Shown in pieces: positions 5,805-56,390 of a stretch of DNA of 64,000 nucleotides. Location: IMG/VR virus record IMGVR_UViG_3300027804_000046, positions 32,001 to 96,000 of that record. One strand, given 5' to 3'. Position 1 is the first letter of the stretch; every line of letters starts with the position of its first letter. A model generated the notes under the pieces. The model saw only the letters and a list, made by a program, of their open reading frames with translations. It made no database searches and was not told where the DNA came from. The DNA is from a virus. The position numbers and the translations under genes were made by a program.

Positions 5805-5805
5805 T

Positions 5806-32716: not shown

Positions 32717-32771
32717 TGTATCCTTACACGAACGAAGAATCTGACTGGCTATCTGGCCGGTAACGCTACAT

Positions 32772-32800
32772 ACTGAGGGAGAATTAACTCCCTCAGTTTT
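32772..32800 (+). terminator. Terminator-like hairpin immediately upstream of the pstS RBS
   Basis: ACTGAGGGAG-AATTAA-CTCCCTCAGT followed by TTT. Confidence 0.6.
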
Positions 32801-32815
32801 ATTATGGAGAAATGT

Positions 32816-33778
32816 ATGAAGAAATTAGTGTTTGCTGCTGTTGCTCTTGGTTTGATTGTTGCACCAGCACTTGCCGCCCGCGATACAATTCGTATCGTTG
32901 GCTCATCTACTGTATATCCTTTCACGACTATCGTAGCAGAACAGTTTGGCAAGAAGACTGACTTGCCCACTCCTATCGTTGAATCGACAGGAACTGGTGG
33001 CGGTATCAAGATGTTTTGCGAAGGCGCTGGTGAAGACACGCCCGATGCAGTGAATGCTTCTCGCCCTATCAAGGAATCTGAACTTGAAACATGTAAGGCT
33101 AACGGCGTAACTGTAACCGAGTTGAAGATTGGTTATGACGCTATTGTTCTTGCTATGGCAAAAGAACGTGCTGACATGGCTTTGACCACGAAGCAGATTT
33201 ACAACGCATTGGCCAAGTATGTCATTGTTGAAGGTCAGTTCGTAGATAATCCAGTCAAGACTTGGAGCGATTTAGATCCAAGTTTGCCAAACGAAAAGAT
33301 TGAAGTTCTTGGTCCGCCTCCTACTTCTGGAACACGCGACTCTTTCGTAGAACTTGTTCTTGAGCGTGAATGTAAGTCTGCTATCAAGGAAGCAGGATTG
33401 ACTGTAACACCTGATGATGAAAAGAAGTATTGTAAGTCTGTTCGTGAAGACGGTGCATATGTCGAGGCTGGCGAGAATGATAATCTAATCGTTCAGAAAC
33501 TTCAAGCAAATTCAGCAGCACTTGGAATCTTCGGTTTTTCTTTCCTTGAAGAAAACGCATCTACACTCAAGGGTGCCACAATCAATGGTGTTGTTCCTGA
33601 ATATGACACAATCAAGCAGGGCGATTACGCAATCTCTCGTCCATTGTTTGTGTATTTCAAGAACGAACACTTTGAACTTGTTCCAGACTTAAAGAAGTTT
33701 ATGGAAGAATACCAGAGTGGAGACGCCATCGGTGAAGATGGATATCTGATAGAGAAGGGTCTAATCTCTCTAGAATAA
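32816..33778 (+). CDS. pstS: Phosphate ABC transporter substrate-binding protein PstS (alphaproteobacterial type)
   Basis: Signal peptide, then ARD.IRIVGSSTVYPF, ESTGTGGG, NASR.IK, GPPPTSGTRD, EAGENDNLIVQKL and Y.ISRPLF.Y motifs. Confidence 0.93.
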   Translation: MKKLVFAAVALGLIVAPALAARDTIRIVGSSTVYPFTTIVAEQFGKKTDLPTPIVESTGTGGGIKMFCEGAGEDTPDAVNASRPIKESELETCKANGVTVTELKIGYDAIVLAMAKERADMALTTKQIYNALAKYVIVEGQFVDNPVKTWSDLDPSLPNEKIEVLGPPPTSGTRDSFVELVLERECKSAIKEAGLTVTPDDEKKYCKSVREDGAYVEAGENDNLIVQKLQANSAALGIFGFSFLEENASTLKGATINGVVPEYDTIKQGDYAISRPLFVYFKNEHFELVPDLKKFMEEYQSGDAIGEDGYLIEKGLISLE

Positions 33779-41884: not shown

Positions 41885-42249
41885 TGAATAACAATAAGAT
41901 TGTCTCTGAAATGTTGGATATGATTTTGAAGGAGCATGTGTATGACATTCTCAGTCGTCAGTGTTTAACTTTTAATCCACCTCCCGATTACGCTGCATCT
42001 GATAGTATTGGTGAAGTCCTAGAGAAGCTGGCCATTCTTCACATTCGCACATGGCATCTTGAAGATGCCATGCAGGCCGCAAAGTCTGATGAAGAACTGG
42101 CTGATCTAAAGCGCAAAGTCGATATCTGTTTCAAGGTCAAACGTCCTAAGTTGGTTGCTGCATTAAACGCCATGATTGATGATGCTATCGTTCGCAATAA
42201 ATCTCTGCGTGAAGAATCGGTAAAGCTTTATAAGGGCGTCAAAGAGTGA
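41881..42249 (+). CDS. Helical protein, DUF4254-like
   Basis: SIGEVLEKLAILHIRTWHLED...R..L...L motif, common in polysaccharide loci. Confidence 0.55.
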   Translation: MMNNNKIVSEMLDMILKEHVYDILSRQCLTFNPPPDYAASDSIGEVLEKLAILHIRTWHLEDAMQAAKSDEELADLKRKVDICFKVKRPKLVAALNAMIDDAIVRNKSLREESVKLYKGVKE

Positions 42250-43115
42250 CCAAGCTTTGTTTCTTCAACTTCTATCATAATGGTGATTTGTTTCATAGCA
42301 AGCCATTTGTTCGTGAAGTCATCAAGCATCTTGGCAAAGAGAAAGTCATGTATGCACACAACAAAGACCCTCGCGCAATCGAAGACTTAGGATTGCCACA
42401 TGTTCGTCTTGAAGGCATATCAGATAAGGTAAAGATATTCAGACCAAAAGATCCAGATATTCTGTTTGTGAATACTTGGATCGGTTCTTACTTTGACAAG
42501 TATACTGGTGAATGCACACTCAACTTCAACATGAAGATGTGGGCAGATATCTATGAAGATATCAATACGACATTCAAGAAAAAGATGAAGCTTGGTCCAG
42601 TGGAAAACTATTTGCCGTATGTTGATTACAGCAAGTATAATCTAGCTAATGCTCGTTCTTTTATTGACAGCGAACCAAGACCGAAGATATTGTTCTGCAA
42701 TGGACCAGCTATGTCTGGTCAGTGTCAATATAATGGTGACATGAGAGAGATAATTGGACCCCTCGCAGCACAGCATGAGAACAAGGTATTTCTTACAACT
42801 CATAAGCTAGATAATATCTGGTCAAATGTCATGTACACTGGAGATATCATTCAGTCTGATAGATGTGATCTAAACGAGATTGCATATCTTTCTAAGTTTT
42901 GCAGCCTCATCATTGGCAAGAACTCTGGTCCATTCTGCTATGCTTCTACTGGTGAAAACTTGAATGATCCTAACAAGACGTTCTATGCATTCGGTCATCA
43001 GGAATCAGATTGCTTCACGATGGGTATTCCAAAGAAGTCAAACTATATATTTGAGAAGTATGAAAGTCCAGGACAGCTTTATGCTTCAATCAGAAATCTA
43101 GTAGAGAAGGCATGA
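42246..43115 (+). CDS. Hypothetical protein, possible GT-B glycosyltransferase
   Basis: HNGD..., LNEIAYLS..C..IIG..SGP (GT9-like C-terminus). Confidence 0.5.
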   Translation: MTKLCFFNFYHNGDLFHSKPFVREVIKHLGKEKVMYAHNKDPRAIEDLGLPHVRLEGISDKVKIFRPKDPDILFVNTWIGSYFDKYTGECTLNFNMKMWADIYEDINTTFKKKMKLGPVENYLPYVDYSKYNLANARSFIDSEPRPKILFCNGPAMSGQCQYNGDMREIIGPLAAQHENKVFLTTHKLDNIWSNVMYTGDIIQSDRCDLNEIAYLSKFCSLIIGKNSGPFCYASTGENLNDPNKTFYAFGHQESDCFTMGIPKKSNYIFEKYESPGQLYASIRNLVEKA

Positions 43116-43318
43116 CAAACTCAATCTGTACAAAGGTATGTGAATATGACAGTGAAGGATCATATAGAAGCGACGAAGAGAAAACTTGCCGAGGCTGCGG
43201 CCGCACGGCGTCAGAAATTACGGAATGGTTCTACGCGACCAGAGAACGCAAAGTCGAAATTGCCAAAGCAGCAAGGGCGCGGACAAAAGCCAAACGTGAG
43301 GCCGACAGGCAGGGGTAG
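43112..43318 (+). CDS. DUF1289-like small Cys-rich protein
   Basis: C..VC....C.GCGRT..EI..W pattern. Confidence 0.7.
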   Translation: MTNSICTKVCEYDSEGSYRSDEEKTCRGCGRTASEITEWFYATRERKVEIAKAARARTKAKREADRQG

Positions 43319-43321
43319 ATA

Positions 43322-44314
43322 ATGAATAAAGTGCCCATAAGAGTTATTAGACGCGAAAACTATGATGTCGAAAGATATCACAATACGTGGTTTAACCTAT
43401 TTTTGAATCGTTTATCAAATGATTTTGATGTTGAATACTTAAATTGTCAAGAAGATGTCGTTTTCATTAGAGAGTTCTTTTATGGAGAAGAAAAAGGATA
43501 TCCAATATCTGATGTTGATATGATTTTGGAAAACAAACTGAACGGTGAAATTTGTTGCATATCGTTTACTGAATACTTCAATTCTTCTATTGTACATTAC
43601 ATGAAAAATCCAAGATTCAAGTCAATGATACTTGTGCATTTTAACTATCATCATTTATACTACTGGACAAAAAGAGATGATGTTGAGAACAAAATGAATA
43701 AGGTAAAACCTTGGATTTTTCCAGTTTATAATGAGTTTGATGTTGATCGTTATCGTGTTCTAAGAGATAATTCGGATCTAAGTGAAAAACTGTTTTTTAA
43801 AGGTTCGGGACTGGATAGCTACAGAATTGCCGTAAGATACCTATGTGAACAGAACATTATAGATTCATCAACGCACTCTCTAGATGACTATTTGCAAATC
43901 ATGGCAAAAAGTAAGATAGCTTTAGGCTACTATCAAGACTTAGATAAGTACGTTACACCTTTTGACTATCCTGGCGAATTTTGTTACAGAGATATGGAAT
44001 ATATTTCTATAGGTGTACCATTCATTCGGATTGAATATAGAGATAGTATCTTTAACGGTCTTTATCCTAACTATCATTACATTTCAATAAATCGAGAAGT
44101 TGCTTATAGTGCATTTGAGAATTATGGAAATGAAGGCGTAGCAAAACTCATAAGGGATAAGTATGAAGAAGTAAAAGACGATAGATATTTGTTGGACTTT
44201 ATTTCAAAGAACCAACGAGAATATTACGATAACTATGTAAGATGGCCAAATTCTGCAATTCTCGCATACAAACAACTTGGCTTGAACGATTGGTTAGATA
44301 TGGAGAAGAAGTAG
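43322..44314 (+). CDS. Hypothetical glycosyltransferase-like protein
   Basis: Y...MAKSKIAL...GEFCYRDMEY...GVP..R motif of GT-B-like C-terminal domains; very AT-rich. Confidence 0.5.
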   Translation: MNKVPIRVIRRENYDVERYHNTWFNLFLNRLSNDFDVEYLNCQEDVVFIREFFYGEEKGYPISDVDMILENKLNGEICCISFTEYFNSSIVHYMKNPRFKSMILVHFNYHHLYYWTKRDDVENKMNKVKPWIFPVYNEFDVDRYRVLRDNSDLSEKLFFKGSGLDSYRIAVRYLCEQNIIDSSTHSLDDYLQIMAKSKIALGYYQDLDKYVTPFDYPGEFCYRDMEYISIGVPFIRIEYRDSIFNGLYPNYHYISINREVAYSAFENYGNEGVAKLIRDKYEEVKDDRYLLDFISKNQREYYDNYVRWPNSAILAYKQLGLNDWLDMEKK

Positions 44315-44315
44315 A

Positions 44316-44921
44316 ATGTCAGAAATCACAGGTCATACAGAGTATAAAAATTTAACCTCACAGCAACATAAAAATTTTTATGGTGTTTTTGAAAAGTTTA
44401 TCAGTGATATTAAACCAGAAAGAATACTTGAAATAGGAACCGCAGGTGGTGGCACAACTCTTGCACTAAACGATATCATGTTAAGCATGAATAAAACAAA
44501 TCGAATAAGAAGTTATGAGGTTAACGATAGTCCGTATTACAAAAAACTATATTCTGCTGGAATTGATCTTCGTATAGAAAACATTTTCAATCATGAATAT
44601 AACAAGTTAAGAAATGATACCAAAGAAAATGTTGTAGAATACATTCAGCGGCCAGGCACAACGTTAATTCTATGTGATGGTGGTCATAAGATTGGTGAGT
44701 TCAATGAACTATCAAGATATCTTAAAGTTGGTGACTATATAATGGCACATGATTATGCTGAGTCTCAAGAATATTTTTATGCTAACATAAAAAATAAGAT
44801 TTGGGATTGGTGTGAAATAACCGAAGAACACATCAAAGAAGCATCAGAAATGTATAATCTCAAAAGATACATGGCAGAAGAATTTCAGTCTATTGTTTGG
44901 GTGTGTAAAGTTAAAGAATAA
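44316..44921 (+). CDS. Class I SAM-dependent methyltransferase
   Basis: ILEIGTAGGG, LCDGGH and LKVGDYI.AHD motifs. Confidence 0.8.
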   Translation: MSEITGHTEYKNLTSQQHKNFYGVFEKFISDIKPERILEIGTAGGGTTLALNDIMLSMNKTNRIRSYEVNDSPYYKKLYSAGIDLRIENIFNHEYNKLRNDTKENVVEYIQRPGTTLILCDGGHKIGEFNELSRYLKVGDYIMAHDYAESQEYFYANIKNKIWDWCEITEEHIKEASEMYNLKRYMAEEFQSIVWVCKVKE

Positions 44922-44936
44922 TTTTTGAGGTAGATA

Positions 44937-45635
44937 ATGACAGACATTAAAACATTTGGACTTTTTCCTGTGCCTGTTAGTATGGCAAACTTCGGTGAAG
45001 ATTCTAAAGAATTGAATGAGAGTTTGATTGCAGATATTTTTTCTGAACAAGCAATGAACCCTATTCCTGCAGGCAGATCAGCCATAGATGGATGGCAGTC
45101 TGATGGAAACATGGATGAAAAATATGAGAGTTTTGCCATTCTTCGTGAGAATATCAAGACTATAATATACTCATTATTACCAAGTTATGGATTTGCTTAT
45201 GATGGTTCATATGATGATATCTTTGACTGCGGTATGCTATGGGCAAATACATTAACACAACACTCGGCATATCATATACCACATATTCATGGAACAGGTG
45301 AGACACTATTCTCAGGTGTATATTATCCCACATCTGGACTAACATCACAACATGAAGACTATTATCCAGAGGAAGATTATAGTGATGTAGAAATACGAGC
45401 ATCCTCTGTTCCTGAATCTGGCGATCTTTTCCTGTTTGATCCTGCTGCTGCACAAAAACGCCAAGTTATTCCTGCGTTTGTTCAAAGATATCCATATTAT
45501 GGTTCAGAGATTTGCATTCGTCCAAAGAAGGCACATCTCATTATCTTTCCTAACTATCTAACTCATATGGTTGCGCCAATAAGACTAAACGGTTTTTGCA
45601 GATTGAGCATTTCATTTAGTCTGAGAAAGAAATGA
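44937..45635 (+). CDS. 2OG-Fe(II) oxygenase-like protein (TIGR02466-type)
   Basis: LFP.PV, GWQS, WAN, H.PH.H, SGVYY, LIIFP.YL.H.V and R.SISF motifs. Confidence 0.8.
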   Translation: MTDIKTFGLFPVPVSMANFGEDSKELNESLIADIFSEQAMNPIPAGRSAIDGWQSDGNMDEKYESFAILRENIKTIIYSLLPSYGFAYDGSYDDIFDCGMLWANTLTQHSAYHIPHIHGTGETLFSGVYYPTSGLTSQHEDYYPEEDYSDVEIRASSVPESGDLFLFDPAAAQKRQVIPAFVQRYPYYGSEICIRPKKAHLIIFPNYLTHMVAPIRLNGFCRLSISFSLRKK

Positions 45636-47323
45636 ACGACTTCACATTAGTTACTGGTCTATGGGATATTAAAAGAGGTGATCTAACAGATTTTAATCGT
45701 TCGTTTGATCATTACTTGGAAAACTTTGACAGGTTGTTATCATTAGATTTCAACATGTGCGTATATGTTCCTAATGAACTTAGAAGATTTGTTGACATGC
45801 GAAGACTGTCGGCAAATACTAAAATCTATATCAAAGAACTGGAAGAGTTTCGACAGAACTTTGAGTTTTTCAAAACAACTAATGAAATAAGAATAAAAGA
45901 GTCCTGGTACAGCAGAGCAGAGTGGCTAAGAAACTCTCCTCAAGCTAAACTTGAATACTACAATCCTATCGTAATGTCTAAGTATTTTATGATTCATGAC
46001 TGTTCTATTTTTAATCCATTCAATACAAACTATTTCTTTTGGATCGATGGCGGACTAACTAATACAGTAGACTTAGGACAGTTAAGAAATCTTTCAACGA
46101 TAAAAGAGTATGTTAAGTCTGTCAATGACAAACTATTGTTTTTATCTTATCCTTATGAGAACGAAAATGAAGTTCACGGATTTGAGAGTTCTAAGTTTGC
46201 AGAATATTGCGGTGTAGAGAAAACGACATATGTTTGTCGTGGTGGTTTTTTTGGTGGACATAAAGATAAGATAAAGAGGTTCAATGGTGAATATTATACC
46301 ATAATGAGAGAAACACTTTCTTCTGGCTATATGGGAACAGAAGAAAACTTTAATACCATCTTATCATATAAACACCCAGAAGAAATACACAACTTTAAAC
46401 TGGACTCTAGCGGTCTAGTATATCCATTTTTTGAACATCTATCAACTATCAAGAAAGAGTCGAGATCCAATTCTGATCTTATTCCATGGGACAAGCATAA
46501 GCAGATTGAAGATATAAAAACATCTCTGTATGTTTTGACTTTTAATAGTCCAGAACAGTTTAAGACTTTGATAGAGACTTATGAAAAGAATGATCCATTG
46601 TTCTTGACAAAGACGCGCAAGATACTGATTGATAACTCAACAAACAAAACAACATATTCAACATACAACGAATTGTGTAGAAAATATGGATTTGAACATA
46701 TAAAGAAAGAAGAAAATCTTGGTATATGTGGAGCAAGACAATATGTTGCTGAACACTTCAATGAGAGCGACTCGGAATATTATATCTTCTTAGAAGATGA
46801 TATGAACCTTGGTGATAAAACAGAAGAACTATGTGTATCAGGATATAAGAAGTGGATAGATGATCTATATTACAAATCTCTTGCAATCATACACAAAAAC
46901 AAGTATGATTATTTGAAATTGTCGTATAGTGAATTTTACGGAAACAATACTACTCAATGGGCATGGTATAACGTTCCGCAGAATGTAAGAGAAGAATATT
47001 TTCCAGATAAAAGTAGTTTACCAGAACAAGGATTAGATTCTGACGCGCCAAAGACGGAAATCTTTCGAGAGAAGAGATATAAAGACTTGAAGTATCTTGA
47101 GGGTAATTTTCACTACTGTAACTGGCCACTTTGGTTTTCCAAAGAAGGTAATCAGAAAGTATTCCTTGATATAAAGTGGGAAAGACCCTACGAACAAACA
47201 TGGATGAGTAATGTTTTCCAAATGCAAAAGCAAGGAAAGATAAAGTGTGCAACATTGGAATTAAGTCCAATATTCCATCATCGATTTGATTTTTATGCTG
47301 ATGAGGAACGAAAAGAGTCTTGA
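45632..47323 (+). CDS. HtrL/YibB (WlaTC)-like domain fused to a GT2-like domain
   Basis: TLVTGLWDI.R, YNP..MSK, NPFNT.YFFWIDGG and GGFFGG in the N-terminal half; LIDNS, N.GI.GARQ and YIFLEDD in the C-terminal half. Confidence 0.7.
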   Translation: MNDFTLVTGLWDIKRGDLTDFNRSFDHYLENFDRLLSLDFNMCVYVPNELRRFVDMRRLSANTKIYIKELEEFRQNFEFFKTTNEIRIKESWYSRAEWLRNSPQAKLEYYNPIVMSKYFMIHDCSIFNPFNTNYFFWIDGGLTNTVDLGQLRNLSTIKEYVKSVNDKLLFLSYPYENENEVHGFESSKFAEYCGVEKTTYVCRGGFFGGHKDKIKRFNGEYYTIMRETLSSGYMGTEENFNTILSYKHPEEIHNFKLDSSGLVYPFFEHLSTIKKESRSNSDLIPWDKHKQIEDIKTSLYVLTFNSPEQFKTLIETYEKNDPLFLTKTRKILIDNSTNKTTYSTYNELCRKYGFEHIKKEENLGICGARQYVAEHFNESDSEYYIFLEDDMNLGDKTEELCVSGYKKWIDDLYYKSLAIIHKNKYDYLKLSYSEFYGNNTTQWAWYNVPQNVREEYFPDKSSLPEQGLDSDAPKTEIFREKRYKDLKYLEGNFHYCNWPLWFSKEGNQKVFLDIKWERPYEQTWMSNVFQMQKQGKIKCATLELSPIFHHRFDFYADEERKES

Positions 47324-47347
47324 CAACTTGGCTGGATATGCTAATAT
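47320..47347 (+). promoter_or_regulatory. Sigma70-type promoter
   Basis: TTGACA-N16-TAATAT with TGn extension. Confidence 0.55.
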
Positions 47348-47379
47348 GTCCATACTAACAAACACACAGAGGAACACAA

Positions 47380-47610
47380 ATGCCTACTTTTGAACAAACG
47401 GTTTATGTTGATGTAGATGCCGATGATTTTGATGATGACGATCTGATTGACGAACTAGAAAGACGCGGTTATACTGTTACTAAAGATCCTGCCGCAGATG
47501 CTTGTTTCGTTGATGTTGCTTGGCATATTGAACGTGGAAATTTAAAGGAAGCGTTGATCCTTCTTGAACGTGAATTGCCTGAACTAAAGGGTATCTCTAG
47601 ACTGAACTAA
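47380..47610 (+). CDS. Hypothetical acidic protein
   Basis: GAGG RBS; DFDDDDLIDELERRGY. Confidence 0.6.
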   Translation: MPTFEQTVYVDVDADDFDDDDLIDELERRGYTVTKDPAADACFVDVAWHIERGNLKEALILLERELPELKGISRLN

Positions 47611-47621
47611 ATACAAACAAT

Positions 47622-47695
47622 GCGGGGTTGGTATATGGGTTGTGCCCTAGCCTTCCAAGCTAGTGAAACGAGTTCGAATCTCGTACTCCGCTCCA
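47622..47695 (+). tRNA. tRNA-Gly (TCC)
   Basis: Acceptor GCGGGGT/ACTCCGC, anticodon arm CTAGC-CTTCCAA-GCTAG, TTCGAAT T-loop, encoded CCA. Confidence 0.92.
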
Positions 47696-47715
47696 ATTTT
47701 ATAATGAGGTGATAC

Positions 47716-47955
47716 ATGCTTTGGCTTATCGTTTTGAATACCATGATGAATGACGGCACTCTCTACACCGACATTCGCACTCCAAACAAACCAGAATTTA
47801 ACAATGAACAGTCTTGCAAGGAAGCAGGACAAATTCTTGTTGATCAGTTGCAACTTGAAGTCGGCACAAACGCTGGTCGCACATACTACATCTGCAAGGC
47901 AATTCCATTTGAGGACATTACGGCAGCCATCGGTAAGGGTGGAAGCGGCACCTGA
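47716..47955 (+). CDS. Hypothetical small protein
   Basis: GAGGT RBS; 79 aa with two Cys. Confidence 0.55.
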   Translation: MLWLIVLNTMMNDGTLYTDIRTPNKPEFNNEQSCKEAGQILVDQLQLEVGTNAGRTYYICKAIPFEDITAAIGKGGSGT

Positions 47956-47967
47956 TTTGACATTTAA

Positions 47968-48723
47968 ATGAAGAAAAAGGTTAAACACTACAACTCGATT
48001 TTCATATCAGACATTCACTTGGGTAGTGAGGGTTCACAGGCTGATATTGTCAATTCTTTTTTAAAGTATCATTCATGTGATAATCTTTTTCTTGTCGGCG
48101 ACATCATAGACGGTTGGAAGTTAAGAAAGCGAGTATATTGGCCACAGTCACACTCGCTCGTTATTCGCCAGATAATCAATAAGCAAAGACACGGTTCTAA
48201 CGTTGTTTATCTGACAGGCAATCATGATGAGTTTTTAAGAGATTGGACCGATATCTCAATTGATATTGAGTCTATTGAAATTAAAGACATGCACGACTAT
48301 CAAGCATTGAACGGTAAAAGATATTTGATTGTTCATGGTGATTTGTTTGATGGTGTGCATAAGGTAGCAAAATGGTTGAGTTACCTAGGCGATAATGCAT
48401 ATACTGTCCTTTTGAAGTTGAATCATTACTACAACAAACTAAGACACTTATTTGGATTTGGATACTGGAGTTTATCTGCGTATCTTAAATCTAATGTAAA
48501 AGGTGCTGTCAATTTCATTTTTGATTTTGAAAGCACTCTTTCCGATTATTGCAAATCTCAAGGATATGATGGTGTTATTTGCGGTCATATACATACTGCT
48601 GTAATTAAGCAAATCAATGGAGTCGAATATATGAACTCTGGTGATTGGGTTGAAAGTTGTACAGCACTTGTAGAAAATATGGACGGATCTTGGGAGATTG
48701 TTAATTGGACTTCAAAAGAATAG
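47968..48723 (+). CDS. plcP: PlcP-like Mn-dependent phospholipase C (LpxH-like metallophosphoesterase)
   Basis: FISDIHLG, LVGDIIDGW.L....YWPQSH, GNHDEFLR, HGDLFD, GYWSLSAYLK..VK.AVNFI.DFE, GVICGHIH and N.GDWVESCTA motifs; followed by a GT4 as in bacterial plcP-agt loci. Confidence 0.8.
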   Translation: MKKKVKHYNSIFISDIHLGSEGSQADIVNSFLKYHSCDNLFLVGDIIDGWKLRKRVYWPQSHSLVIRQIINKQRHGSNVVYLTGNHDEFLRDWTDISIDIESIEIKDMHDYQALNGKRYLIVHGDLFDGVHKVAKWLSYLGDNAYTVLLKLNHYYNKLRHLFGFGYWSLSAYLKSNVKGAVNFIFDFESTLSDYCKSQGYDGVICGHIHTAVIKQINGVEYMNSGDWVESCTALVENMDGSWEIVNWTSKE

Positions 48724-49709
48724 TTATCGTAACCGATGCTTGGGAACCACAAGTCAGTGGTGTTGTCACTACACTCAAGAAAATGGTAGAGTTTGCTAAG
48801 AAAGATGGATACGATATCGTTGTTATTCATCCTGGCTTGTTTAAGAGTAAATTTTACTTTAAAGTTTATCCTGAAATACCATTTACTATTCCTTTTGGAT
48901 TGTCTAAGCATCTCAAATATAAAACAGATACAGTTTATCATATCGCAACTGAAGGACCATTAGGTCTTGCCGCTGCATTTATTTTAACGTTCAAGAATAG
49001 AAGATATACTACATCTTATCATACAGACTGGTCAAAACTTATGAAAGATGTGGGCGGTATTCCTGAATGGATTACCAGGGCTTACATTAAGTGGTTTCAT
49101 AGAAAACGTAAAGTCTTTTGTCCCACTGAAACAATCAAACGGTTTATGATTGACAATAAAATTGGTCGCAGACAGATTATCTGGCCAAGAGGTGTTGATC
49201 CAGAAATCTTTACGCCTAGAATAAAAGCATCTCTAAAAGGTACTAAAATTCTACTCTCTGTTGGCCGTATATCAAAAGAAAAAAATCTAGATGCTTTTTG
49301 CCAGTTGCCGAACAAATATAAAAAGATTGTTGTTGGTGATGGTCCATACAAAGAAGAACTAGAAAGAAAATATCCTGATGTAATCTTTGTCGGTTATAAG
49401 TTTGGCGCAGAACTTGCAAACTATTATAGACAAGCAGATTGTTTTGTCTTTACCAGCAAAGCAGACACGTTTGGTGTTGTTATGATTGAGGCTATGTATT
49501 GTGGAACTCCTGTTGCTGCATATCCTGTTCAAGGTCCAATCGATGTGGTTGATAACAAGCACACAGGAATTTTAGATGAAAGTTTAGAGACGGCAATTAA
49601 AAAGTGCTTGACACTATCAAGAAAAAAGTGTAGTATTACAGCCAGAAATAGTTGGTCTTGGGACACCGTTTGGTATACATTTGTGAACAACTTGGAAAAA
49701 GATAAATGA
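48705..49709 (+). CDS. agt: GT4 glycosyltransferase, Agt-like diacylglycerol glycosyltransferase
   Basis: IVTDAW.PQV.GVV.TL, HIATEGPLG, TTSYHT, VGR.SKEKNL.AF, DTFG.VM.EA..CGTPVAAYPV.GP.DV motifs. Confidence 0.75.
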   Translation: MDFKRIVIVTDAWEPQVSGVVTTLKKMVEFAKKDGYDIVVIHPGLFKSKFYFKVYPEIPFTIPFGLSKHLKYKTDTVYHIATEGPLGLAAAFILTFKNRRYTTSYHTDWSKLMKDVGGIPEWITRAYIKWFHRKRKVFCPTETIKRFMIDNKIGRRQIIWPRGVDPEIFTPRIKASLKGTKILLSVGRISKEKNLDAFCQLPNKYKKIVVGDGPYKEELERKYPDVIFVGYKFGAELANYYRQADCFVFTSKADTFGVVMIEAMYCGTPVAAYPVQGPIDVVDNKHTGILDESLETAIKKCLTLSRKKCSITARNSWSWDTVWYTFVNNLEKDK

Positions 49710-49870
49710 AACACATCGAAGTAAGTGATTTCATAGAACATGAAGATGGTTCTGCTACCATTACTATCACAATGGATTACGAAATTATTCTCTTCTTTGC
49801 GAAGAAGTCCCTTCTTGCAACTTTAATTGAAGCGGCTAACGAGGCAAAAGAAGATGAAAGTCAAGATTAG
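49706..49870 (+). CDS. Small hypothetical protein (54 aa), not in ORF track
   Basis: MKHIEVSDFIEHEDGSATIT...; ATGA overlap with the agt stop. Confidence 0.5.
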   Translation: MKHIEVSDFIEHEDGSATITITMDYEIILFFAKKSLLATLIEAANEAKEDESQD

Positions 49871-50444
49871 TAAATATCCTACAGACAGATTGATATGTAG
49901 GATTCATGACCGTTACATGAACAAGAAGTACGGTCACGTTTGGCCTCATCCTTCAACACCAACTAAGATTGAAAACTTCTTAGAGTTGATTGAAGGAATC
50001 ATTCAGTCGTTCTATGACGTAACGATTAATCCTATCATCAGACATCGTAAGCGAAAGATTAGTGTTCGTATTGATGATTGGGATACCTGGAGTGCTGATG
50101 TTACTCTAGCCTACATCATTCATCCTATTCTTCTAAAGATTAAAGAAGGTAAGTTTGGCACTCCATACACCTATCGTGAAGATGCGCCCGATGATGTTAT
50201 CTATGATGATCGCACCGAAGATGATGATTGGGATCGACCCTTTAACGCAATGCGCTGGCATTATATTCTTGATGAGATGATTTTTGCCTTTGAGAAAATC
50301 AAAGACGGAGAATGGGACTTAGAAATCTACGAGAGACATAATGGTTGGACTACCGAAGCCCTTGAGGAGCGTGATGAAATTCAAAAGCGTATTAACAACG
50401 GGCTTCGTCTCTTTGCTAAATATTATCAGAGTTTGTGGACATAA
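49854..50444 (+). CDS. Conserved-type phage hypothetical protein
   Basis: MKVKISKY...VRID.WDTWS.D.TLA.II.P.L...W.YILDEMIFAFE...RI.NGLRLF.KYY..LW. Confidence 0.65.
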   Translation: MKVKISKYPTDRLICRIHDRYMNKKYGHVWPHPSTPTKIENFLELIEGIIQSFYDVTINPIIRHRKRKISVRIDDWDTWSADVTLAYIIHPILLKIKEGKFGTPYTYREDAPDDVIYDDRTEDDDWDRPFNAMRWHYILDEMIFAFEKIKDGEWDLEIYERHNGWTTEALEERDEIQKRINNGLRLFAKYYQSLWT

Positions 50445-50446
50445 AA

Positions 50447-50662
50447 ATGGCATGTAATTCGTGTAGCAATAATGATAGTTCGAACTCTCTCTTCCTGAAA
50501 GAGGGATCTTTCTATATTCTTGGACAATACGGCTCACGATATGACATGGAACTTTATGCTCTCAAAAGAGCCACATATTCTATCGGTGATATTTGTGATG
50601 ATTGTGTGAGACAACTAATCAATGAAGGCGTTGCACAAAAAATACAGGACGGAGTTTGGTGA
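50447..50662 (+). CDS. Hypothetical Cys-containing protein
   Basis: CxxC ... YGS.YD ... ICDDC. Confidence 0.55.
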   Translation: MACNSCSNNDSSNSLFLKEGSFYILGQYGSRYDMELYALKRATYSIGDICDDCVRQLINEGVAQKIQDGVW

Positions 50663-50826
50663 TGTTAGGATGGAAGTACAACGAAAGTATTCTCAGAACC
50701 TATATGACTGAACACGCAGAAGACATGGGCAGATTTTGGGCTGAGATATATAAGAATACGCCTAGTTTTTATGAGAACTTTATGCGAGGATTTCTAGAGG
50801 AACTAAACAAACCCAAGAAGGAATAG
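50662..50826 (+). CDS. Small hypothetical protein (54 aa)
   Basis: GGAG RBS; TGATG coupling. Confidence 0.4.
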   Translation: MLGWKYNESILRTYMTEHAEDMGRFWAEIYKNTPSFYENFMRGFLEELNKPKKE

Positions 50827-50830
50827 CAAA

Positions 50831-51031
50831 ATGGCATATCAAACTATTTCCGAAGAGATTATCCGACAAGCAGCAGAGATTATGGGCCCAGATAGCAACT
50901 TTCATGTTGCTTTAAAATGGGGTGAAGAGTATAGACAAGCGGGCATGAACCCTGTATACTATACAGACGATTCTGAAAAGATGGTATTTGTTACTACAGA
51001 AGAAAAGATGAACGGCACTAAGTTTAATTAA
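50831..51031 (+). CDS. Hypothetical protein
   Basis: 66 aa ORF with AAGGA RBS. Confidence 0.5.
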   Translation: MAYQTISEEIIRQAAEIMGPDSNFHVALKWGEEYRQAGMNPVYYTDDSEKMVFVTTEEKMNGTKFN

Positions 51032-51046
51032 GATTGGAGTTTTATA

Positions 51047-51229
51047 ATGAATATTCTTGAGACGCAATGGAAGCAGCGAACACACGATAGCAAGTGGGAA
51101 AAACTTGCTAAGGTTATGGACTACGAAAACAAGTATGTCTATAAGAGCGAGTCGGGTTCTAATCTGACTTACATTCCTACCAAGTGGATGACAGTCGGTG
51201 TGTTTGATTATGTAGGAGAACTAGAATAA
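51047..51229 (+). CDS. Hypothetical protein
   Basis: 60 aa ORF with GGAG RBS. Confidence 0.5.
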   Translation: MNILETQWKQRTHDSKWEKLAKVMDYENKYVYKSESGSNLTYIPTKWMTVGVFDYVGELE

Positions 51230-51543
51230 TGGCTGCGAATGTGAAGATACTCAAGTTAATTACTGGTGAGGAACTGCTTGGTGAAATGCTACCAGGTGGA
51301 CCCTCAGTTTGTGAAATCAAAAACCCTGTTCGTATCGTTGTGATGCCCAACAAGATGGATCCTAAGACTCCAAATGTTGGCTTTGCTCCTTGGGCAGAAT
51401 TTAGTGACCAGAAAACTTTTATTATTGACAAGTCTCATGTATTGTGTATAATAGAGCCAATTAAAGAGTTCGTCAATCAATACAATTCCATGTTTGGCGG
51501 ACTTGTTCTTCCGACTTCCAATTTGATTAAGCCAGGAGCATAA
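51229..51543 (+). CDS. Conserved T4-like hypothetical protein upstream of gp43
   Basis: KILKLITGEELLG, KNP, GFAPW and NQYNSMFG motifs. Confidence 0.7.
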   Translation: MAANVKILKLITGEELLGEMLPGGPSVCEIKNPVRIVVMPNKMDPKTPNVGFAPWAEFSDQKTFIIDKSHVLCIIEPIKEFVNQYNSMFGGLVLPTSNLIKPGA

Positions 51544-54104
51544 TGTCCGACAACTTTTACACTAACGTTCAAGTGTATGGTTCCAGAATACTTTATAGAG
51601 GCATAGAAAACGGTAGGAAAGTAAGACGCAAGATAGATTACTTTCCTACTTTTTTTGTTCCCTCAAAAGAACCAACGGACTGGACAACCATTCATGGCAA
51701 GTATGTTTCTGAGTTGAAGCCCGGAAACATTCGTGAGGCTAGAGACTTTCTCAAGATGTATGAGGAAGTTGAAGGCTTTATTGTCTATGGCAATAACAGA
51801 TATGAATATGCTTTCATCGCAGAAACTTTCCCGAATGATGTTGATTGGGATATCTCTAAAATCAATGTGACAAACATCGATATCGAGGTCGGCTCAGAGA
51901 ATGGTTTTCCTGAACCGTCTCTGGCCAATGAACCAATTACAGCCATCACGTTCAAGAACAATCAAGGCAAGTTTATCGTATTTGGCTGCGGTAAGTTTAA
52001 CAACACCCGTGATGATGTCCAGTATATTCATTGTCGTGATGAGATTGACCTTATCAAGAGATTTATTGATGAGTGGTCTGGCGACTATCCTGATATCATC
52101 ACTGGTTGGAATGTAGAACGGTTCGATATCGTCTATCTCGTCAATCGCTTTCGCAAGTTGATGGGTGAAGAGTTTGCTAACAGACTATCACCTTGGAATG
52201 TTATCAATGAAGGCAAGACTACAAACAAGTTGGGTCAAGTAGAAACAATCTATCGCATTCTTGGCATCGCCACACTTGATTATATTGCCATGTATCGCAA
52301 GTTTGCTCCTGGTGGTCAGTCTCAGGAATCTTATTCACTCAACAATATTGCCAATGTAGAACTTGGCGAAAAGAAGTTGTCGTATGAAGAATATGGCAAT
52401 CTGCACAATCTCTACAAAGAGAACTATCAAAAGTTTATTGAGTATAACATCAAAGACGTTGAACTTGTTGACAAGATTGATGACAAGTTGAAACTCATTG
52501 AACTTGCTCTTACTCTTGCATACGACAGCAAAACTAATCCAGACGATTCCTTCTCACAGGTTCGTATGTGGGATGCTATCGTTTATAATCATCTTCGCAA
52601 GAAGAATATGGTTGTGGATCCTATTGTCAAGCACAGTAAAGATTCCGCATACGAAGGCGCACATGTGAAAGAACCTGTGCCTGGTCTGTATAAGTGGGTC
52701 GCATCATTCGACTTGAACAGTCTGTATCCACACTTAATTATGCAGTACAACATTTCGCCTGACACAATCATTGAACCAGAAGATTACACTCCTGGTCTGA
52801 GAATGTATGTGAAAGACAATCACTTTGAGGTTGATGAGTTTCTTGACCAAATAAACAACAACAATCAACTCAAGTATGAAAACGTGACTGTGACACCAAA
52901 CGGACATTTCTATCGTCGCACGAAGCAGGGTTTCTTGCCTGAGATTATGGAAACAATGTATAATGACCGCAGCGCATATAAGAAGAAGACTATTGCTGCC
53001 AAGAAAGAACTAGAGAAAGAAACTGATCCAGAAAAGAGAATTGAAATCGAAAAGCGTGTAGCACGATTCAATAATCTCCAGTTGGCTAAGAAGGTTTCTC
53101 TAAACTCTGCTTACGGCGCTCTCGGTAATCAATACTTCCGATACTTCGACGTTCGACAGGCCTCAGGCATCACGACTGCTGGTCAGTTGTCCATTCGTTG
53201 GATCGAAAAGAAACTAAATGAATATATGAACAAAATTCTAAAGACGGACAAAGAAGACTATGTTATCGCCTCGGATACGGATAGCATTTACCTCTGTCTT
53301 GATAAACTGGTCAGCAAGACTATTATTGAGCAGAGTCCAAATGCTACAACAAAACAAATTATCGCATTCATGGATAAGGTCTGCGAAAATAAAATTCAAC
53401 CGTTTATTGACTCTGCTTATGCTGAACTTGCTGAATATATTAATGCCTACGAACAAAAGATGCAAATGAAGCGTGAGGCTCTGGCCGACAAGGGTATCTG
53501 GACAGCCAAGAAGCGTTACATTCTGAATGTATACAATAACGAAGGTGTTGAATACGCAAAGCCCAAGCCGAAAGTCATGGGTCTTGAGATGATCAAGTCT
53601 TCCACTCCTGCATACTGCCGCAAGATTATGTGGGAAGCAATCGACATTGTTCTCAACAAGACTGAGAATGATTTGATTGGCATGATTGAAACATGGCGTC
53701 AAGAGTTTAGACATCAGAATATTTCAGACATTGCGTTTCCTCGTGGTGTAAATGGACTTGATAAGTTTGCTGACGCCAAGGCTATCTTTGGTAAGGGTTG
53801 CCCAATTCATGTGCGCGGTTCTTTGCTATATAACGATTTAATCAAGCGCAAGAAGTTGGACAAGACATATCAGGCAATCAAAGAGGGTGAGAAGATTAAG
53901 TTCATCTATCTCAAAGAGCCAAACACCATTCAGTCTAATGTCATCTCGTTTCCAACAATTGTGCCAAAAGAACTTGACATTGAGAAGTATATCGACTATG
54001 ATTTGCAGTTTGACAAATCTTTTCTAGAGCCATTGAAGATTATTCTTGATAGCATTGACTGGAAGACTGAACATGTATCTTCGCTTGAAGATTTCTTCAA
54101 CTAA
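51543..54104 (+). CDS. gp43: Family B DNA polymerase
   Basis: Exo DIE; SFDLNSLYPHLI.QYNISP, K..LNSAYGA.GN, ASDTDS and KKRY motifs; PIP-like SLEDFF C-terminus; uninterrupted. Confidence 0.98.
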   Translation: MSDNFYTNVQVYGSRILYRGIENGRKVRRKIDYFPTFFVPSKEPTDWTTIHGKYVSELKPGNIREARDFLKMYEEVEGFIVYGNNRYEYAFIAETFPNDVDWDISKINVTNIDIEVGSENGFPEPSLANEPITAITFKNNQGKFIVFGCGKFNNTRDDVQYIHCRDEIDLIKRFIDEWSGDYPDIITGWNVERFDIVYLVNRFRKLMGEEFANRLSPWNVINEGKTTNKLGQVETIYRILGIATLDYIAMYRKFAPGGQSQESYSLNNIANVELGEKKLSYEEYGNLHNLYKENYQKFIEYNIKDVELVDKIDDKLKLIELALTLAYDSKTNPDDSFSQVRMWDAIVYNHLRKKNMVVDPIVKHSKDSAYEGAHVKEPVPGLYKWVASFDLNSLYPHLIMQYNISPDTIIEPEDYTPGLRMYVKDNHFEVDEFLDQINNNNQLKYENVTVTPNGHFYRRTKQGFLPEIMETMYNDRSAYKKKTIAAKKELEKETDPEKRIEIEKRVARFNNLQLAKKVSLNSAYGALGNQYFRYFDVRQASGITTAGQLSIRWIEKKLNEYMNKILKTDKEDYVIASDTDSIYLCLDKLVSKTIIEQSPNATTKQIIAFMDKVCENKIQPFIDSAYAELAEYINAYEQKMQMKREALADKGIWTAKKRYILNVYNNEGVEYAKPKPKVMGLEMIKSSTPAYCRKIMWEAIDIVLNKTENDLIGMIETWRQEFRHQNISDIAFPRGVNGLDKFADAKAIFGKGCPIHVRGSLLYNDLIKRKKLDKTYQAIKEGEKIKFIYLKEPNTIQSNVISFPTIVPKELDIEKYIDYDLQFDKSFLEPLKIILDSIDWKTEHVSSLEDFFN

Positions 54105-54109
54105 ATATA

Positions 54110-54910
54110 TTGATGCAATCACGTATCCTCACAATTCTTGTGTTCATCACAGGAATCGCAATATCTGCTGTAGCCGCTTATTATAGTATAATCGGTCTTA
54201 CATCCATCTTTGCTGGAGCATTCTGGCCTATTATCATCATGGGTTCAGTATTGGAAGTCGGCAAACTTGTAGCAACATCTTGGCTATACAATAACTGGAA
54301 ACAAGCGCCGTTTCTAATCAAGACTTATCTGTTTGCTGCTATCGGTGTATTGATGCTCATTACAAGCATGGGCATCTTTGGCTTTCTTTCCAAAGCACAC
54401 ATTGAACAACAGTTGCAACTCAATACTGGTGTGACAGAACAAGTTGAAATACTGAATAGCGAAATCACTCTGCAACAGGAACGCATCGCAGACTTAGACA
54501 AACAGATAAAAGTGATAGACGATTCAATCAATAAGATGATTGAAAAGGGACAAACAAAATCTTCTCTAGCCGCAGCAAAGCAACAGAAAGAAACTCGCCA
54601 AGCTTTAGTCGATGAAAAGAAAACAGAAACAGATAAACTATCACAAATGAAATCTCAGCGCATAAAGTTGGAATCTGAGTTCAAGAAAATAGAAGCAGAA
54701 GTCGGACCAATCAAGTATGTTGCCGAACTAATTTACGGCTCATCCGATCAAGAAATAGTTGACAAAGCCATCAGATTTGTTATAATGCTGCTCATATTCG
54801 TGTTTGATCCGTTGGCAATATTACTTCTGTTAGCCTTCAATATATCCGCAGCACAGAATAGACGAATTGAATTTTTAGATATGGAAGAATTAGAGAATGA
54901 CAAAAGATGA
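54110..54910 (+). CDS. Membrane protein with coiled coil
   Basis: Three N-terminal TM segments (AAYYSI.GL, LEVGKLV, ITSMGIFGFLS), a coiled coil, EVGPIKY and a C-terminal TM FDPLA. Confidence 0.7.
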   Translation: MMQSRILTILVFITGIAISAVAAYYSIIGLTSIFAGAFWPIIIMGSVLEVGKLVATSWLYNNWKQAPFLIKTYLFAAIGVLMLITSMGIFGFLSKAHIEQQLQLNTGVTEQVEILNSEITLQQERIADLDKQIKVIDDSINKMIEKGQTKSSLAAAKQQKETRQALVDEKKTETDKLSQMKSQRIKLESEFKKIEAEVGPIKYVAELIYGSSDQEIVDKAIRFVIMLLIFVFDPLAILLLLAFNISAAQNRRIEFLDMEELENDKR

Positions 54911-55286
54911 TTATGACGATTTTCATAAAGTGTTGGAAGACATTGTAGCATCAAGGAAGTATCTTGATGGTGCATCTAGACCTTGGGGTCGCTGGTATGT
55001 CCTAGATGTGGATCAGGGATTCAAGGTAAAGAAACTGGAAATTCTACCAGATCAGGCTATCTCACTACAGTATCACATCCATCGTACAGAAACCTGGACG
55101 ATTGTTCAAGGCGAAGGCAAAGTGATTGTTGATGGTAATGTGTTTTCTGTCAAGAAGGGCGACACGTTCTTTGTGCCAAGACAGGGCATTCACAAAATCA
55201 CAAATACACATCTCAAGGAAATTTTAATTGCAATTGAGGTGCAAATCGGCGAAATTTGCAGAGAGGACGATATCGTTCGCTGCTAA
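54897..55286 (+). CDS. Cupin, mannose-6-phosphate isomerase type II C-terminal-like
   Basis: RPWG, VKKL.I.P...ISLQYH.HR.E.W, H.I.N, IEVQ.G...EDDIVR motifs. Confidence 0.85.
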   Translation: MTKDDYDDFHKVLEDIVASRKYLDGASRPWGRWYVLDVDQGFKVKKLEILPDQAISLQYHIHRTETWTIVQGEGKVIVDGNVFSVKKGDTFFVPRQGIHKITNTHLKEILIAIEVQIGEICREDDIVRC

Positions 55287-55337
55287 ATACAGCGTCACGG
55301 AGAATCGTGACGTTCAACATAATATAGGAGAATCTAT

Positions 55338-56390
55338 ATGTCAAACATGTTTACTTCCTTACTCAAGGAGATTGATAATGAATATGCGGGAATTGCAGAC
55401 GAAGGTATCGAAGCTGGTGATGTCACTGGGTTCATTGGTACTGGCTCTTATAGTCTCAATGCTCTACTTAGCGGTAGCATTTACGGTGGCTTACCTGCAA
55501 ACAAGGTCACAGCACTCGCAGGTGAACCCTCAACCGGCAAGACCTTTTACACAATCAACATTGTCAGACAATTCCTCAGAGACAATAAAGATGGATTCGT
55601 CTTCTACTTTGAATCAGAATCCGCTATATCTAAGCAAATGCTTTCAGACAGAAACGTTGACACAAAGCGAGTTGCAGTTGTGCCAGTCGCAACTATCCAA
55701 GAATTTAGAACTCAAGCCGTAAAAATCCTCGACAAGTATATCGAAGACAAAGAGAAGAAGGATCGCCCGCCGATGCTCTTTGTTCTAGATTCACTCGGCA
55801 ATCTTTCTACAGACAAAGAGATGGCCGACATTGCAGACGGCAAAGACACACGCGACATGACACGCGCACAACTTGTTCGTGGTGCATTCCGTGTTCTTAC
55901 ACTCAAGCTTGGTAAGGCTAAAGTACCGCTCATCGTGACCAATCACGTTTATGATGTAGTTGGTTCGTATGTTCCGACCAAGAAGATGGGTGGCGGTTCT
56001 GGTCTTGAGTATGCTGCATCGACCATTCTGTTTCTGTCAAAGAAGAAAGACAAGGACAAGGACGGTAGCGTATCTGGTGCAATCATCACGGCCAATCTCA
56101 AGAAGGCTCGTCTGACGATTGAGAACAAGAAGGTCGAAACTCTGCTTGACTATTCTTACGGACTTGATCCATACTACGGTCTTATTGATTTGGCTGAAAA
56201 GTTTGGTATCATGAAGAAGGTAGCAAACAAGTATGAAATGCCAGATGGCTCTAAGGCTTTCGAGTCTGTCATTCAATTAAATCCAGAAAAGTATTTTACA
56301 AAGGACATCATGGACAAAATTGATGAAGCATGTAAGAATGAGTTTCTTTATGGTAAGTCCAATGTCACAGATACGGAGGAATCTGAATGA
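55338..56390 (+). CDS. uvsX: RecA-like recombinase UvsX
   Basis: TGSY.LNAL.SG, AGEPSTGKTF, DSLGNL, DMTRA, TNH.Y and MGGGSG..YAAS motifs. Confidence 0.95.
   Translation: MSNMFTSLLKEIDNEYAGIADEGIEAGDVTGFIGTGSYSLNALLSGSIYGGLPANKVTALAGEPSTGKTFYTINIVRQFLRDNKDGFVFYFESESAISKQMLSDRNVDTKRVAVVPVATIQEFRTQAVKILDKYIEDKEKKDRPPMLFVLDSLGNLSTDKEMADIADGKDTRDMTRAQLVRGAFRVLTLKLGKAKVPLIVTNHVYDVVGSYVPTKKMGGGSGLEYAASTILFLSKKKDKDKDGSVSGAIITANLKKARLTIENKKVETLLDYSYGLDPYYGLIDLAEKFGIMKKVANKYEMPDGSKAFESVIQLNPEKYFTKDIMDKIDEACKNEFLYGKSNVTDTEESE

Follow-up and report, generated by a model that had tools for sequence, protein, structure and literature searches.

The two-gene cassette plcP-agt was examined in a 64,000-nucleotide stretch of viral DNA (hereafter the window; bases 32001-96000 of the 136,549-base IMG/VR virus record IMGVR_UViG_3300027804_000046, CheckV completeness 81%) and is probably a phage-borne copy of a bacterial lipid-renovation operon, which would free membrane phosphorus for the phage. 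The first gene, plcP (47968..48723, plus strand), is an open reading frame (ORF) of 251 amino acids with an ATG start and encodes a PlcP-family metallophosphoesterase, a predicted phospholipase C that would yield diacylglycerol and a phospho-head group. The second gene, agt (48705..49709, plus strand), is an ORF of 334 amino acids with a TTG start and encodes a GT4 of the Agt/GTcp clade, a predicted UDP-sugar:diacylglycerol glycosyltransferase. The observations behind this reading are the family membership of both proteins, their catalytic residues, an operon-like arrangement, purifying selection and a cassette polymorphism.

A preliminary description of this DNA, made from its letters, had placed an overlapping metallophosphoesterase and GT4 pair at 47968-49709, and both ORFs lie exactly there. 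The metallophosphoesterase motifs that it quoted (DIHLG, GDIIDGW..YWPQSH, GNHDEFLR, GYWSLSAYLK, GHIH and GDWVESCTA) are all contained in the translation, as are the GT4 motifs IVTDAWEPQVSGVVTTL, HIATEGPLG and GTPVAAYPVQGP. The two genes overlap by 19 nucleotides, and a Shine-Dalgarno-like GGGAGA for agt (48692..48697, plus strand) lies within the 3' end of plcP, 7 nucleotides 5' of the TTG. Both the 19-nucleotide overlap and the TTG start are conserved in the two close kin of the pair, on viral contigs L083 and L084, and translational coupling of agt to plcP is predicted. The start of plcP is only 12 nucleotides past the preceding ORF, so that plcP is probably read through from upstream.

A Pfam search with the 251-amino-acid protein gave matches to Metallophos (2.5e-11) and Metallophos_2. 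The five metallophosphoesterase motifs D15xH17, G44D45, G84NHD87, H123 and G206HxH209 are intact and are invariant in an alignment of 16 sequences. The NCBIfam equivalog model for LpxH, NF003743, gave a score of 33.7 bits against a cut-off of 134, and comparison with a PDB LpxH chain by sequence gave only E = 0.82. The LpxH model was also used to search five bacterial genomes chosen as holding a close homologue of the window PlcP. Four of the five contained a true LpxH (218-333 bits) alongside a paralogue below the cut-off (38-57 bits), while in Caulobacter the paralogue was found alone, without a true LpxH. In four of the five genomes this paralogue maps exactly to the plcP-like locus that was found with the window protein. 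A PlcP model was built from 62 bacterial PlcPs with an Agt-type gene adjacent downstream, and gave 374 bits for the window protein, 353 bits for the homologue of Pelagibacter phage Mosig and 19-36 bits for four true LpxH proteins. Trees were calculated with FastTree (177 rows) and with IQ-TREE (LG+C20, Shimodaira-Hasegawa-like approximate likelihood ratio test (SH-aLRT), 51 rows); in both, LpxH was split off by the longest branch at 100% support and the window protein lay on the PlcP side.

The AlphaFold model of the 251-amino-acid protein had a predicted local distance difference test (pLDDT) score of 79.9 and a predicted template modelling score (pTM) of 0.82, with a helical insert at residues 124-197 that was modelled at a lower pLDDT of 55-73. 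The first 24 matches listed by Foldseek were all LpxH, with an E value of 1.6e-11, template modelling (TM) scores of 0.53-0.57 and an identity of 15-19%. That LpxH is the best fold match at so low an identity is consistent with an enzyme that handles lipids but belongs to another sequence family. The LpxH structures (PDB 6pib, 5k8k, 5b49 and others) share with the modelled PlcP a calcineurin-like metallophosphoesterase core and a helical insert between motifs IV and V, and LpxH likewise has a lipid as its substrate; the window protein differs from them in sequence, in missing the equivalog cut-off, in belonging to a separate paralogue and in lying outside a lipid A gene context. On these comparisons the first gene is of the PlcP type, with a predicted LpxH-like fold suited to a lipid substrate. 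A true LpxH was ruled out by the equivalog score (33.7 of 134 bits), the coexisting paralogues, the PlcP model (374 against 19-36 bits) and the 100% split in the two trees, so the phylogenetic and profile comparisons agree with the earlier proposal of PlcP over LpxH.

For the 334-amino-acid protein, Pfam gave matches to Glyco_transf_4 (1.6e-12, residues 17-167), Glycos_transf_1 (4.7e-23, residues 175-290) and Glyco_trans_1_4, and by these matches the GT4 architecture of two Rossmann-like domains is present. GTcp, the characterised SAR11 Agt of 'Candidatus Pelagibacter sp.' HTCC7211 (WP_008545403.1), is described as a protein of 334 amino acids with a His104-Asp256 dyad, having Asp where GT4 enzymes usually carry Glu, and with the UDP-sugar motifs GRVAxEKN and FPSxTDTFG; the donor-site residues are Gly16, Gly82, Gly85, Arg190, Lys195, Thr257, Phe258, Gly259 and Glu264, and the diacylglycerol-site residues are His104, Thr162, Arg163 and Trp320, of which Thr162 is reported to be crucial for activity (PMC8231724). 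The window Agt is of the same length. When the GTcp residue numbering was matched by motif context, rather than by alignment to the GTcp sequence, the window Agt was seen to carry the Asp dyad (H106/D254), the Gly-rich motif and both types of UDP-sugar motif, in the differing forms GRISKEKN at 187-194 and FTSKADTFG at 249-257. All of the donor-site residues mutated in GTcp are retained (G19, G84, G87, R188, K193, T255, F256, G257 and E262), including the Arg, the Lys, the Thr-Phe-Gly and the Glu. Three of the four diacylglycerol-site residues are kept as His, Arg and Trp (H106, R162 and W319), and the equivalent of Thr162 is Pro161.

The dyad column contained Asp in 58 of the 62 plcP-linked bacterial GT4s and Glu in all six of the other GT4 paralogues from the same genomes; among 35 viral copies Asp was found in 16 and Glu in 19. 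In each of the five bacterial genomes the window GT4 matched the GT4 next to plcP best (204-232 bits), whereas the paralogues that are not of the Agt type scored at most 91 bits; one genome (G003) holds a second full Agt-type copy at 223 bits. A GT4 tree split the paralogues off at 99% support, and an Agt model gave 337 bits for the window protein compared with 49-247 for other GT4s of the same genomes. By these sequence criteria the second gene belongs to the Agt/GTcp clade, and diacylglycerol glycosylation is its predicted activity. An unrelated GT4 was ruled out by the plcP-adjacent best match in five of five genomes and by the retained GTcp signature residues, and the original assignment to Agt rather than to another GT4 is borne out.

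The bacterial counterpart of the pair was examined in 80 named loci from Alpha-, Beta- and Gammaproteobacteria and Campylobacterota, collected with a PlcP alignment. The window PlcP is 46-55% and the window Agt 36-43% identical to the copies in these loci. An Agt-type GT4 lies no more than 500 nucleotides downstream on the same strand at 61 of the 80 loci; it lies elsewhere at one, is missing from the flank examined at 15, and three loci end too early. The roles of PlcP and Agt were proved genetically by Sebastian et al., who term the context with agt next to plcP 'type 2' (PMC4796936), and the window pair, with an Agt-clade GT4 directly downstream of plcP, has this type-2 context. Loci of the Burkholderia cepacia complex are among the 61 operon-like loci, and the window PlcP is 52-53% identical to plcP of loci L033 and L044 from this complex. 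A plcP-agt-dagK operon has been characterised in B. cenocepacia, and the PlcP orthologues of that clade are more than 84% identical to BCAL2364 (PMC13691135). In Burkholderia locus L037 a Pfam scan of the ORF that follows agt was negative, and dagK is unconfirmed there by that scan.

The pathway is a phosphate-starvation response in the bacteria in which it has been characterised (PMC4796936, PMC8231724, PMC9804370, PMC13691135). Compared with the bacterial operon, as represented by Phaeobacter (MED193_17359), HTCC7211 (PB7211_983/PB7211_960), B. cenocepacia (BCAL2364-BCAL2365-dagK) and Pseudomonas aeruginosa (PlcP with Agt1/Agt2), the phage pair is alike in its families, gene order, strand, close spacing and intact catalytic motifs (PMC4796936, PMC13691135, PMC9804370). 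It differs in being an AT-rich cassette of 1.75 kb on a lytic-type T4-like phage, in the 19-nucleotide overlap and in the TTG start of agt. Neither dagK nor an E. coli-type Pho box was found with the phage pair.

The surroundings of the pair are those of a phage. A T4-type (gp43-like) DNA polymerase is encoded at 51543-54104, a RecA/UvsX-like protein and a DnaB-type helicase are also encoded in the window, and a profile scan revealed a gp45 clamp, a gp44 clamp loader and a deoxynucleoside monophosphate (dNMP) kinase; the DNA around plcP-agt is on this account assigned to a phage. By polymerase, T4-like Synechococcus phages come closest among cultured phages, at an identity of only 50-52%, and a megablast search of 47000-52000 against cultured phages gave no match. 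Six tRNA genes are present, and a tRNA-Gly at 47622-47695 closely precedes plcP-agt. The GC (guanine plus cytosine) content of the cassette is 35-36% compared with 40% for the window, and its GC at third codon positions (GC3) is 28-33% compared with 44% for the polymerase gene; the neighbouring DNA at 44-50 kb of the window has the same low GC, 34-36%.

A sister phage (record G407) has a polymerase 99% identical to that of the window and yet contains neither plcP nor agt. BLASTN of window 36000-58000 against G407 gave colinear blocks, with identities of 94.9% over 36000-43321, 78.8% over 45639-47951 and 97.1% over 49703-57091. In G407 the second and third of these blocks directly adjoin each other, at subject positions 12595 and 12597, and the piece missing between them (47952..49702, to which no strand applies) is exactly plcP-agt, with the indel at the gene borders. 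This clean indel identifies the pair as a flexible cassette, and its presence and absence in near-identical phages is a new observation. The upstream flanking ORF (47716..47955, plus strand, 79 amino acids) belongs to no family and is kept in the sister phage, which places it outside the cassette. In the empty site of G407 it runs straight into the downstream flanking ORF (49706..49870 in the window, plus strand, 54 amino acids, beginning MKHIEV) via a single TAAATGAA. This 8-nucleotide stop/start junction motif forms a direct repeat around the cassette: the left copy is at 47965..47972 (plus strand) and the right copy, which includes the stop codon of agt as well as the ATG at which the following gene starts, is at 49703..49710 (plus strand). 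The word is common at gene junctions, with five copies in the window, and is therefore at most a microhomology.

The contigs of one DNA run, which may be the source sample, bridge both cassette junctions, at 47669-48010 and 49080-49763. Contig L083 (110 kb) carries a pair with PlcP and Agt 90 and 88% identical to those of the window, upstream of a polymerase that is 72% identical, and L084 carries a pair at 88 and 85%. A chimera with host DNA, which the preliminary description had named as a possible objection, was ruled out by phage genes on both flanks, by the pairs on these two independent viral contigs and by the clean indel against the sister phage. Among the window, L083 and L084 the proportion of synonymous differences (pS) is 0.53-0.80, which is near saturation, the proportion of nonsynonymous differences (pN) is 0.056-0.079, and the ratio of nonsynonymous to synonymous rates (dN/dS), where computable, is 0.02-0.08; the pN of the polymerase between the window and L083 is 0.18. 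The low pN at near-saturated synonymous sites indicates strong purifying selection, and both genes have therefore long remained functional in phages.

A PlcP relative is encoded in at least 530 of the IMG/VR stretches, among 600 that were pattern-matched, and the best 80 of these were used for counts of viral loci. An Agt is adjacent to plcP in 26 of the 80, so the survey of viral contigs that had been suggested did find the pair elsewhere; Agt lies 0.5-3 kb downstream in a further nine, and five loci are cut short. In 35 of the best 80, one or more further large ORFs of the window have a match in the flanks. Database proteins include 11 at 72-90% identity to the window PlcP and 23 at 66-94% to Agt; in several PlcP and Agt pairs among these the longest contigs are of equal length, a hint that the two proteins lie on one contig. 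The viral PlcPs form at least three supported groups within one clade of 95% support, in which Campylobacterota and Hyphomonas-like rows are included as well; the trees do not settle in which order these groups branch, and neither a single acquisition nor several are claimed. The nearest relatives of the window PlcP outside its close kin are 62-64% identical and lie on contigs of 481-523 kb (P0012, P0015 and P0023). PlcP homologues were also seen on other very long contigs, L113, L149 and L158 (202-332 kb), and the very long contigs may be giant phages or cells. A metagenome contig scan with P0015 gave a single locus, at 46%.

The closest homologue of the window PlcP in a cultured phage is Mosig_00120 of Pelagibacter phage Mosig EXVC030M (MT647606.1), with an identity of 49.6%. 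It is labelled 'putative UDP-2,3-diacylglucosamine hydrolase' and is divergent from a phosphate ABC-transporter (pstS-like) gene (4894-6729, locus L001). Unlike that of the window, the Mosig locus is without an Agt-type GT4, and the Mosig PlcP groups with Hyphomonas-like bacterial copies and not with the window clade. A lone distant homologue (34%), labelled UDP-2,3-diacylglucosamine diphosphatase, is also found at 3995-4699 of the freshwater cyanophage Synechococcus phage S-SRM01 (MW015081.1; locus L210), beside split psbA pieces and homing endonucleases.

In the mechanism that is proposed, PlcP would cut the phospho-head group off host glycerophospholipids (phosphatidylethanolamine, phosphatidylglycerol or phosphatidylcholine) while the diacylglycerol stays in the membrane, with the helical insert of PlcP as the putative lipid-binding element. 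The coupled Agt would then glycosylate the diacylglycerol with a hexose or with glucuronic acid taken from a UDP-sugar, giving a phosphorus-free glycolipid that would keep the bilayer intact. Host phosphatases would release phosphate from the freed head groups, and in a phosphate-starved infected cell the synthesis of phage DNA would draw on this membrane phosphorus as well as on uptake through PstS. The substrates, products, expression, timing and benefit to the phage are those expected by analogy with the bacterial pathway.

The phage also carries a second phosphate-stress gene, pstS, for a periplasmic phosphate-binding protein (32804..33778, plus strand; PBP_like_2, 157.5 bits). The preliminary description had cited a pstS at 32816, which is the second in-frame ATG of this ORF, as a sign of the same selective pressure; the gene is present, but its link with the cassette is thematic only. 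pstS is 97% identical in G407 and is also present in records G408 and G412, all three being without the cassette in the parts examined, and it was not found in the examined parts of G418, which bears the pair, or of G416, which bears plcP. pstS and the cassette are thus inherited independently among the relatives. A perfect hairpin of 9 bp (CTGAGGGAG / CTCCCTCAG) with a T-run after it lies at 32766-32803 and ends just 5' of the pstS start, so that pstS would need its own promoter or read-through.

Several observations weigh against the proposed explanation of the pair. The product of PlcP is a phospho-head group and not free phosphate, and no phage phosphatase was identified for the step between them. 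Pro161, at the position of the crucial Thr162 of GTcp, is also found in L083, and Ser or Thr occupies that column in 52 of the 62 bacterial homologues. No Agt was found in the flank examined at 40 of the best 80 viral loci. Fifteen records of polymerase relatives (11-76% complete) were searched for the pair, which was found in one (G418, the record of L083), with plcP alone in one other (G416, 54%), and the cassette is dispensable, since the sister phage is without it. The connection to the characterised proteins SMc00171, MED193_17359, PB7211_983/960, PA3219/3218 and BCAL2364/5 runs via operon-defined orthologues and published residue lists. Finally, a search for Pho boxes with at most three mismatches to an E. 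coli-type consensus gave six matches in the window compared with 8.6 expected, with none upstream of plcP or pstS; phosphate-responsive control is therefore unsupported here.

Other regulatory signals around the cassette were also examined. The DNA upstream of the cassette in the window, L083 and L084 does not align, so the three have no shared promoter. The best sigma-70-like candidate is TTGACA-16-TAATAT at 47320-47347, and such sites are not enriched in the window (14 compared with 9.0 in shuffles, standard deviation 3.2). In three RNA-library runs, from three studies, contigs match 47373-47802 with 0-5 differences. This segment comprises a 76-amino-acid acidic ORF, the tRNA-Gly and the start of the 79-amino-acid ORF, and is the only well-covered part of 47300-50500. 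Over plcP-agt the RNA-library contigs are short pieces with 18-19 differences per 130-150 nucleotides, that is, from relatives. These data are assembled contigs that may include DNA carry-over, and no inference on transcription was drawn from them.

Remodelling of the host membrane by the pair could instead serve some end unrelated to the supply of phosphorus, which is considered unlikely. Possibilities of this kind are phage exclusion or receptor display through a change of the envelope, late stabilisation of the membrane, or a dismantling of phospholipids in which Agt would only detoxify diacylglycerol. The missing Pho-box-type site and the independent inheritance of pstS and the cassette are consistent with such a role, as is the position of the cassette in a low-GC flexible region beside a large surface-glycan cluster. 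This cluster occupies 13.5 kb (33838-47323) between pstS and the cassette, and encodes a GT2, a GT10 fucosyltransferase, a HAD-type hydrolase, GDP-mannose 4,6-dehydratase, an epimerase, a DegT aminotransferase, a CmcI-type methyltransferase, a 2OG-Fe(II) oxygenase and an HtrL/YibB plus GT2 protein. The authors of the pelagimyophage paper take phage glycosyltransferases as surface modifiers that block co-infection (PMC7029224), and lipid remodelling in P. aeruginosa alters membrane proteins usable as phage receptors (PMC9804370). The pathways characterised in the cited bacteria, however, are phosphate-starvation responses, the phage encodes pstS as well, and the Mosig homologue of PlcP stands back to back with a phosphate-transporter gene. 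The sister phage moreover keeps the glycan cluster without the cassette, which makes cluster and cassette separate modules and places the GT4 encoded by agt outside the glycan cluster. Within the cluster, 43322-45638 is replaced or strongly diverged in the sister phage, the sole match there being one of 68.5% at 44363-44909.

A second alternative is that the first gene is a true LpxH acting with a GT4 of lipopolysaccharide (LPS) synthesis, so that the pair and the sugar genes upstream of it would jointly modify lipid A or O-antigen. The existing names agree with this: the Joint Genome Institute (JGI) calls the homologues 'UDP-2,3-diacylglucosamine pyrophosphatase LpxH', the protein atlas gives only LpxH-type names, the Mosig and S-SRM01 labels name LpxH activity, and 'lpxH' is entered under LPS biosynthesis, with no further remark, in two virus surveys (PMC10653327, PMC9611531). 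LpxH is also the best structural match, and the 13.5-kb glycan cluster lies upstream. Set against these, the equivalog cut-off was missed by 100 bits, both the models and the trees separate the protein from LpxH, and genomes with a real LpxH keep the PlcP family as a separate paralogue. The GT4 is of the plcP-linked Agt type with the Asp dyad, no other lpx gene was found among the neighbours scanned, and the cassette is gained or lost independently of the glycan cluster. This alternative is largely refuted by the sequence comparisons and is very improbable. It is scarcely credible that the segment is a mis-assembled bacterial fragment or a decaying functionless passenger, as its low GC and GC3 and its absence from the sister phage might suggest, given the equally low GC of the 44-50 kb neighbourhood, the pairs in phage context on two further viral contigs from other samples, the junctions bridged by contigs of the DNA run that may be the source sample, an indel exactly at the gene borders, and two intact frames with a dN/dS of 0.02-0.08 across kin.

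The distribution of the cassette DNA among sequencing runs was also examined. Seventeen runs, drawn from ten studies, contain at least 58% of the words sampled from 47300-50500. The ten studies comprise six of freshwater, one of a reservoir, one of an estuary, one of ballast water and one unlabelled, and the source sample may be among them. The comparison with marine SAR11 and roseobacters, in which the pair had originally been framed, gave the right biochemistry but probably the wrong habitat, the runs being mostly freshwater or estuarine. A homologue was found in 143 of 401 sampled alphaproteobacterial genomes, with none above 53% identity; the tally includes one genome flagged as unpublished (G245), on which nothing else here depends. 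Searches of the record, which is 81% complete, for psbA and for genes of peptide deformylase and ribosomal protein S21 were negative; S21 and the deformylase are called core in the pelagimyophage paper (PMC7029224). A search for Asp/Arg hydroxylase was likewise negative, but its control matched nothing either, and the outcome carries no weight.

No paper on a virus-encoded PlcP or lipid-renovation pair was found in open-access text, supplements excluded. The passages on phages, viruses or PlcP in PMC9804370, PMC9457565, PMC6030836 and PMC4796936 contain nothing on a phage-encoded PlcP, and the gene is unmentioned in the pelagimyophage (PMC7029224) and S-SRM01 (PMC8557907) papers. The words lipid, LpxH and diacylglucosamine are all absent from the Mosig genome announcement and isolation paper. 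The preliminary description knew of no such standard phage module; no paper describing the pair was found, although it is not rare in phage contigs, the two genes being adjacent in 26 of the best 80.

Phosphorus limits phage production, and phage particles are DNA-rich. The genes pstS, phoA and phoH are phosphate-stress auxiliary genes of aquatic T4-like phages, known from the cyanophage literature, and the presence of pstS in cyanophages is held to track phosphorus scarcity. To our knowledge, the phosphate genes described in phages to date all serve the uptake of external phosphate. The plcP-agt cassette resembles them in being host-derived, in lying in a flexible region, in varying among close relatives and in its proposed connection with phosphorus scarcity. 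It differs in that it would draw on an internal store, the membrane lipid, rather than on uptake, and in forming a two-enzyme pathway. In S-SRM01, phoH is present (PMC8557907). If the proposed function is correct, a virus-encoded conversion of phospholipid to glycolipid would be a different phosphorus route, one that taps an internal store of the host.

It may further be, although we put the chances slightly below even, that membrane-lipid mining is a widespread and overlooked viral strategy, with plcP, with or without agt, mobile among aquatic phages and its presence tracking phosphorus scarcity. Viral lipid renovation would then account for part of what virus surveys record as 'lpxH', and possibly for part of the environmental PlcP counts taken to indicate bacterial phosphorus stress, and infected cells would move the lipid pools of lakes and oceans away from phospholipid and towards glycolipid. 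With the module common and yet filed as lpxH, viral tallies of 'LPS biosynthesis' and some environmental readings of PlcP may need revision. The sister phages with and without the cassette are a natural experiment.

Three further features were observed elsewhere in the window. A restriction endonuclease of the EcoRI family (PF02963, 72 bits) and a short ORF resembling an N6-methylase lie at 27652-28907, directly 3' of the gp44 clamp-loader gene, and look like a phage-borne restriction-modification pair within a replication operon. A TET-associated glycosyltransferase (PF20691, 149.8 bits) is encoded at 18795-19769, and this match suggests that the phage may glycosylate hydroxymethylated bases of its own DNA. 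A protein with an Sm-like domain (PF16243, 35.4 bits) is encoded at 51229-51543 and abuts the DNA polymerase gene on its upstream side.

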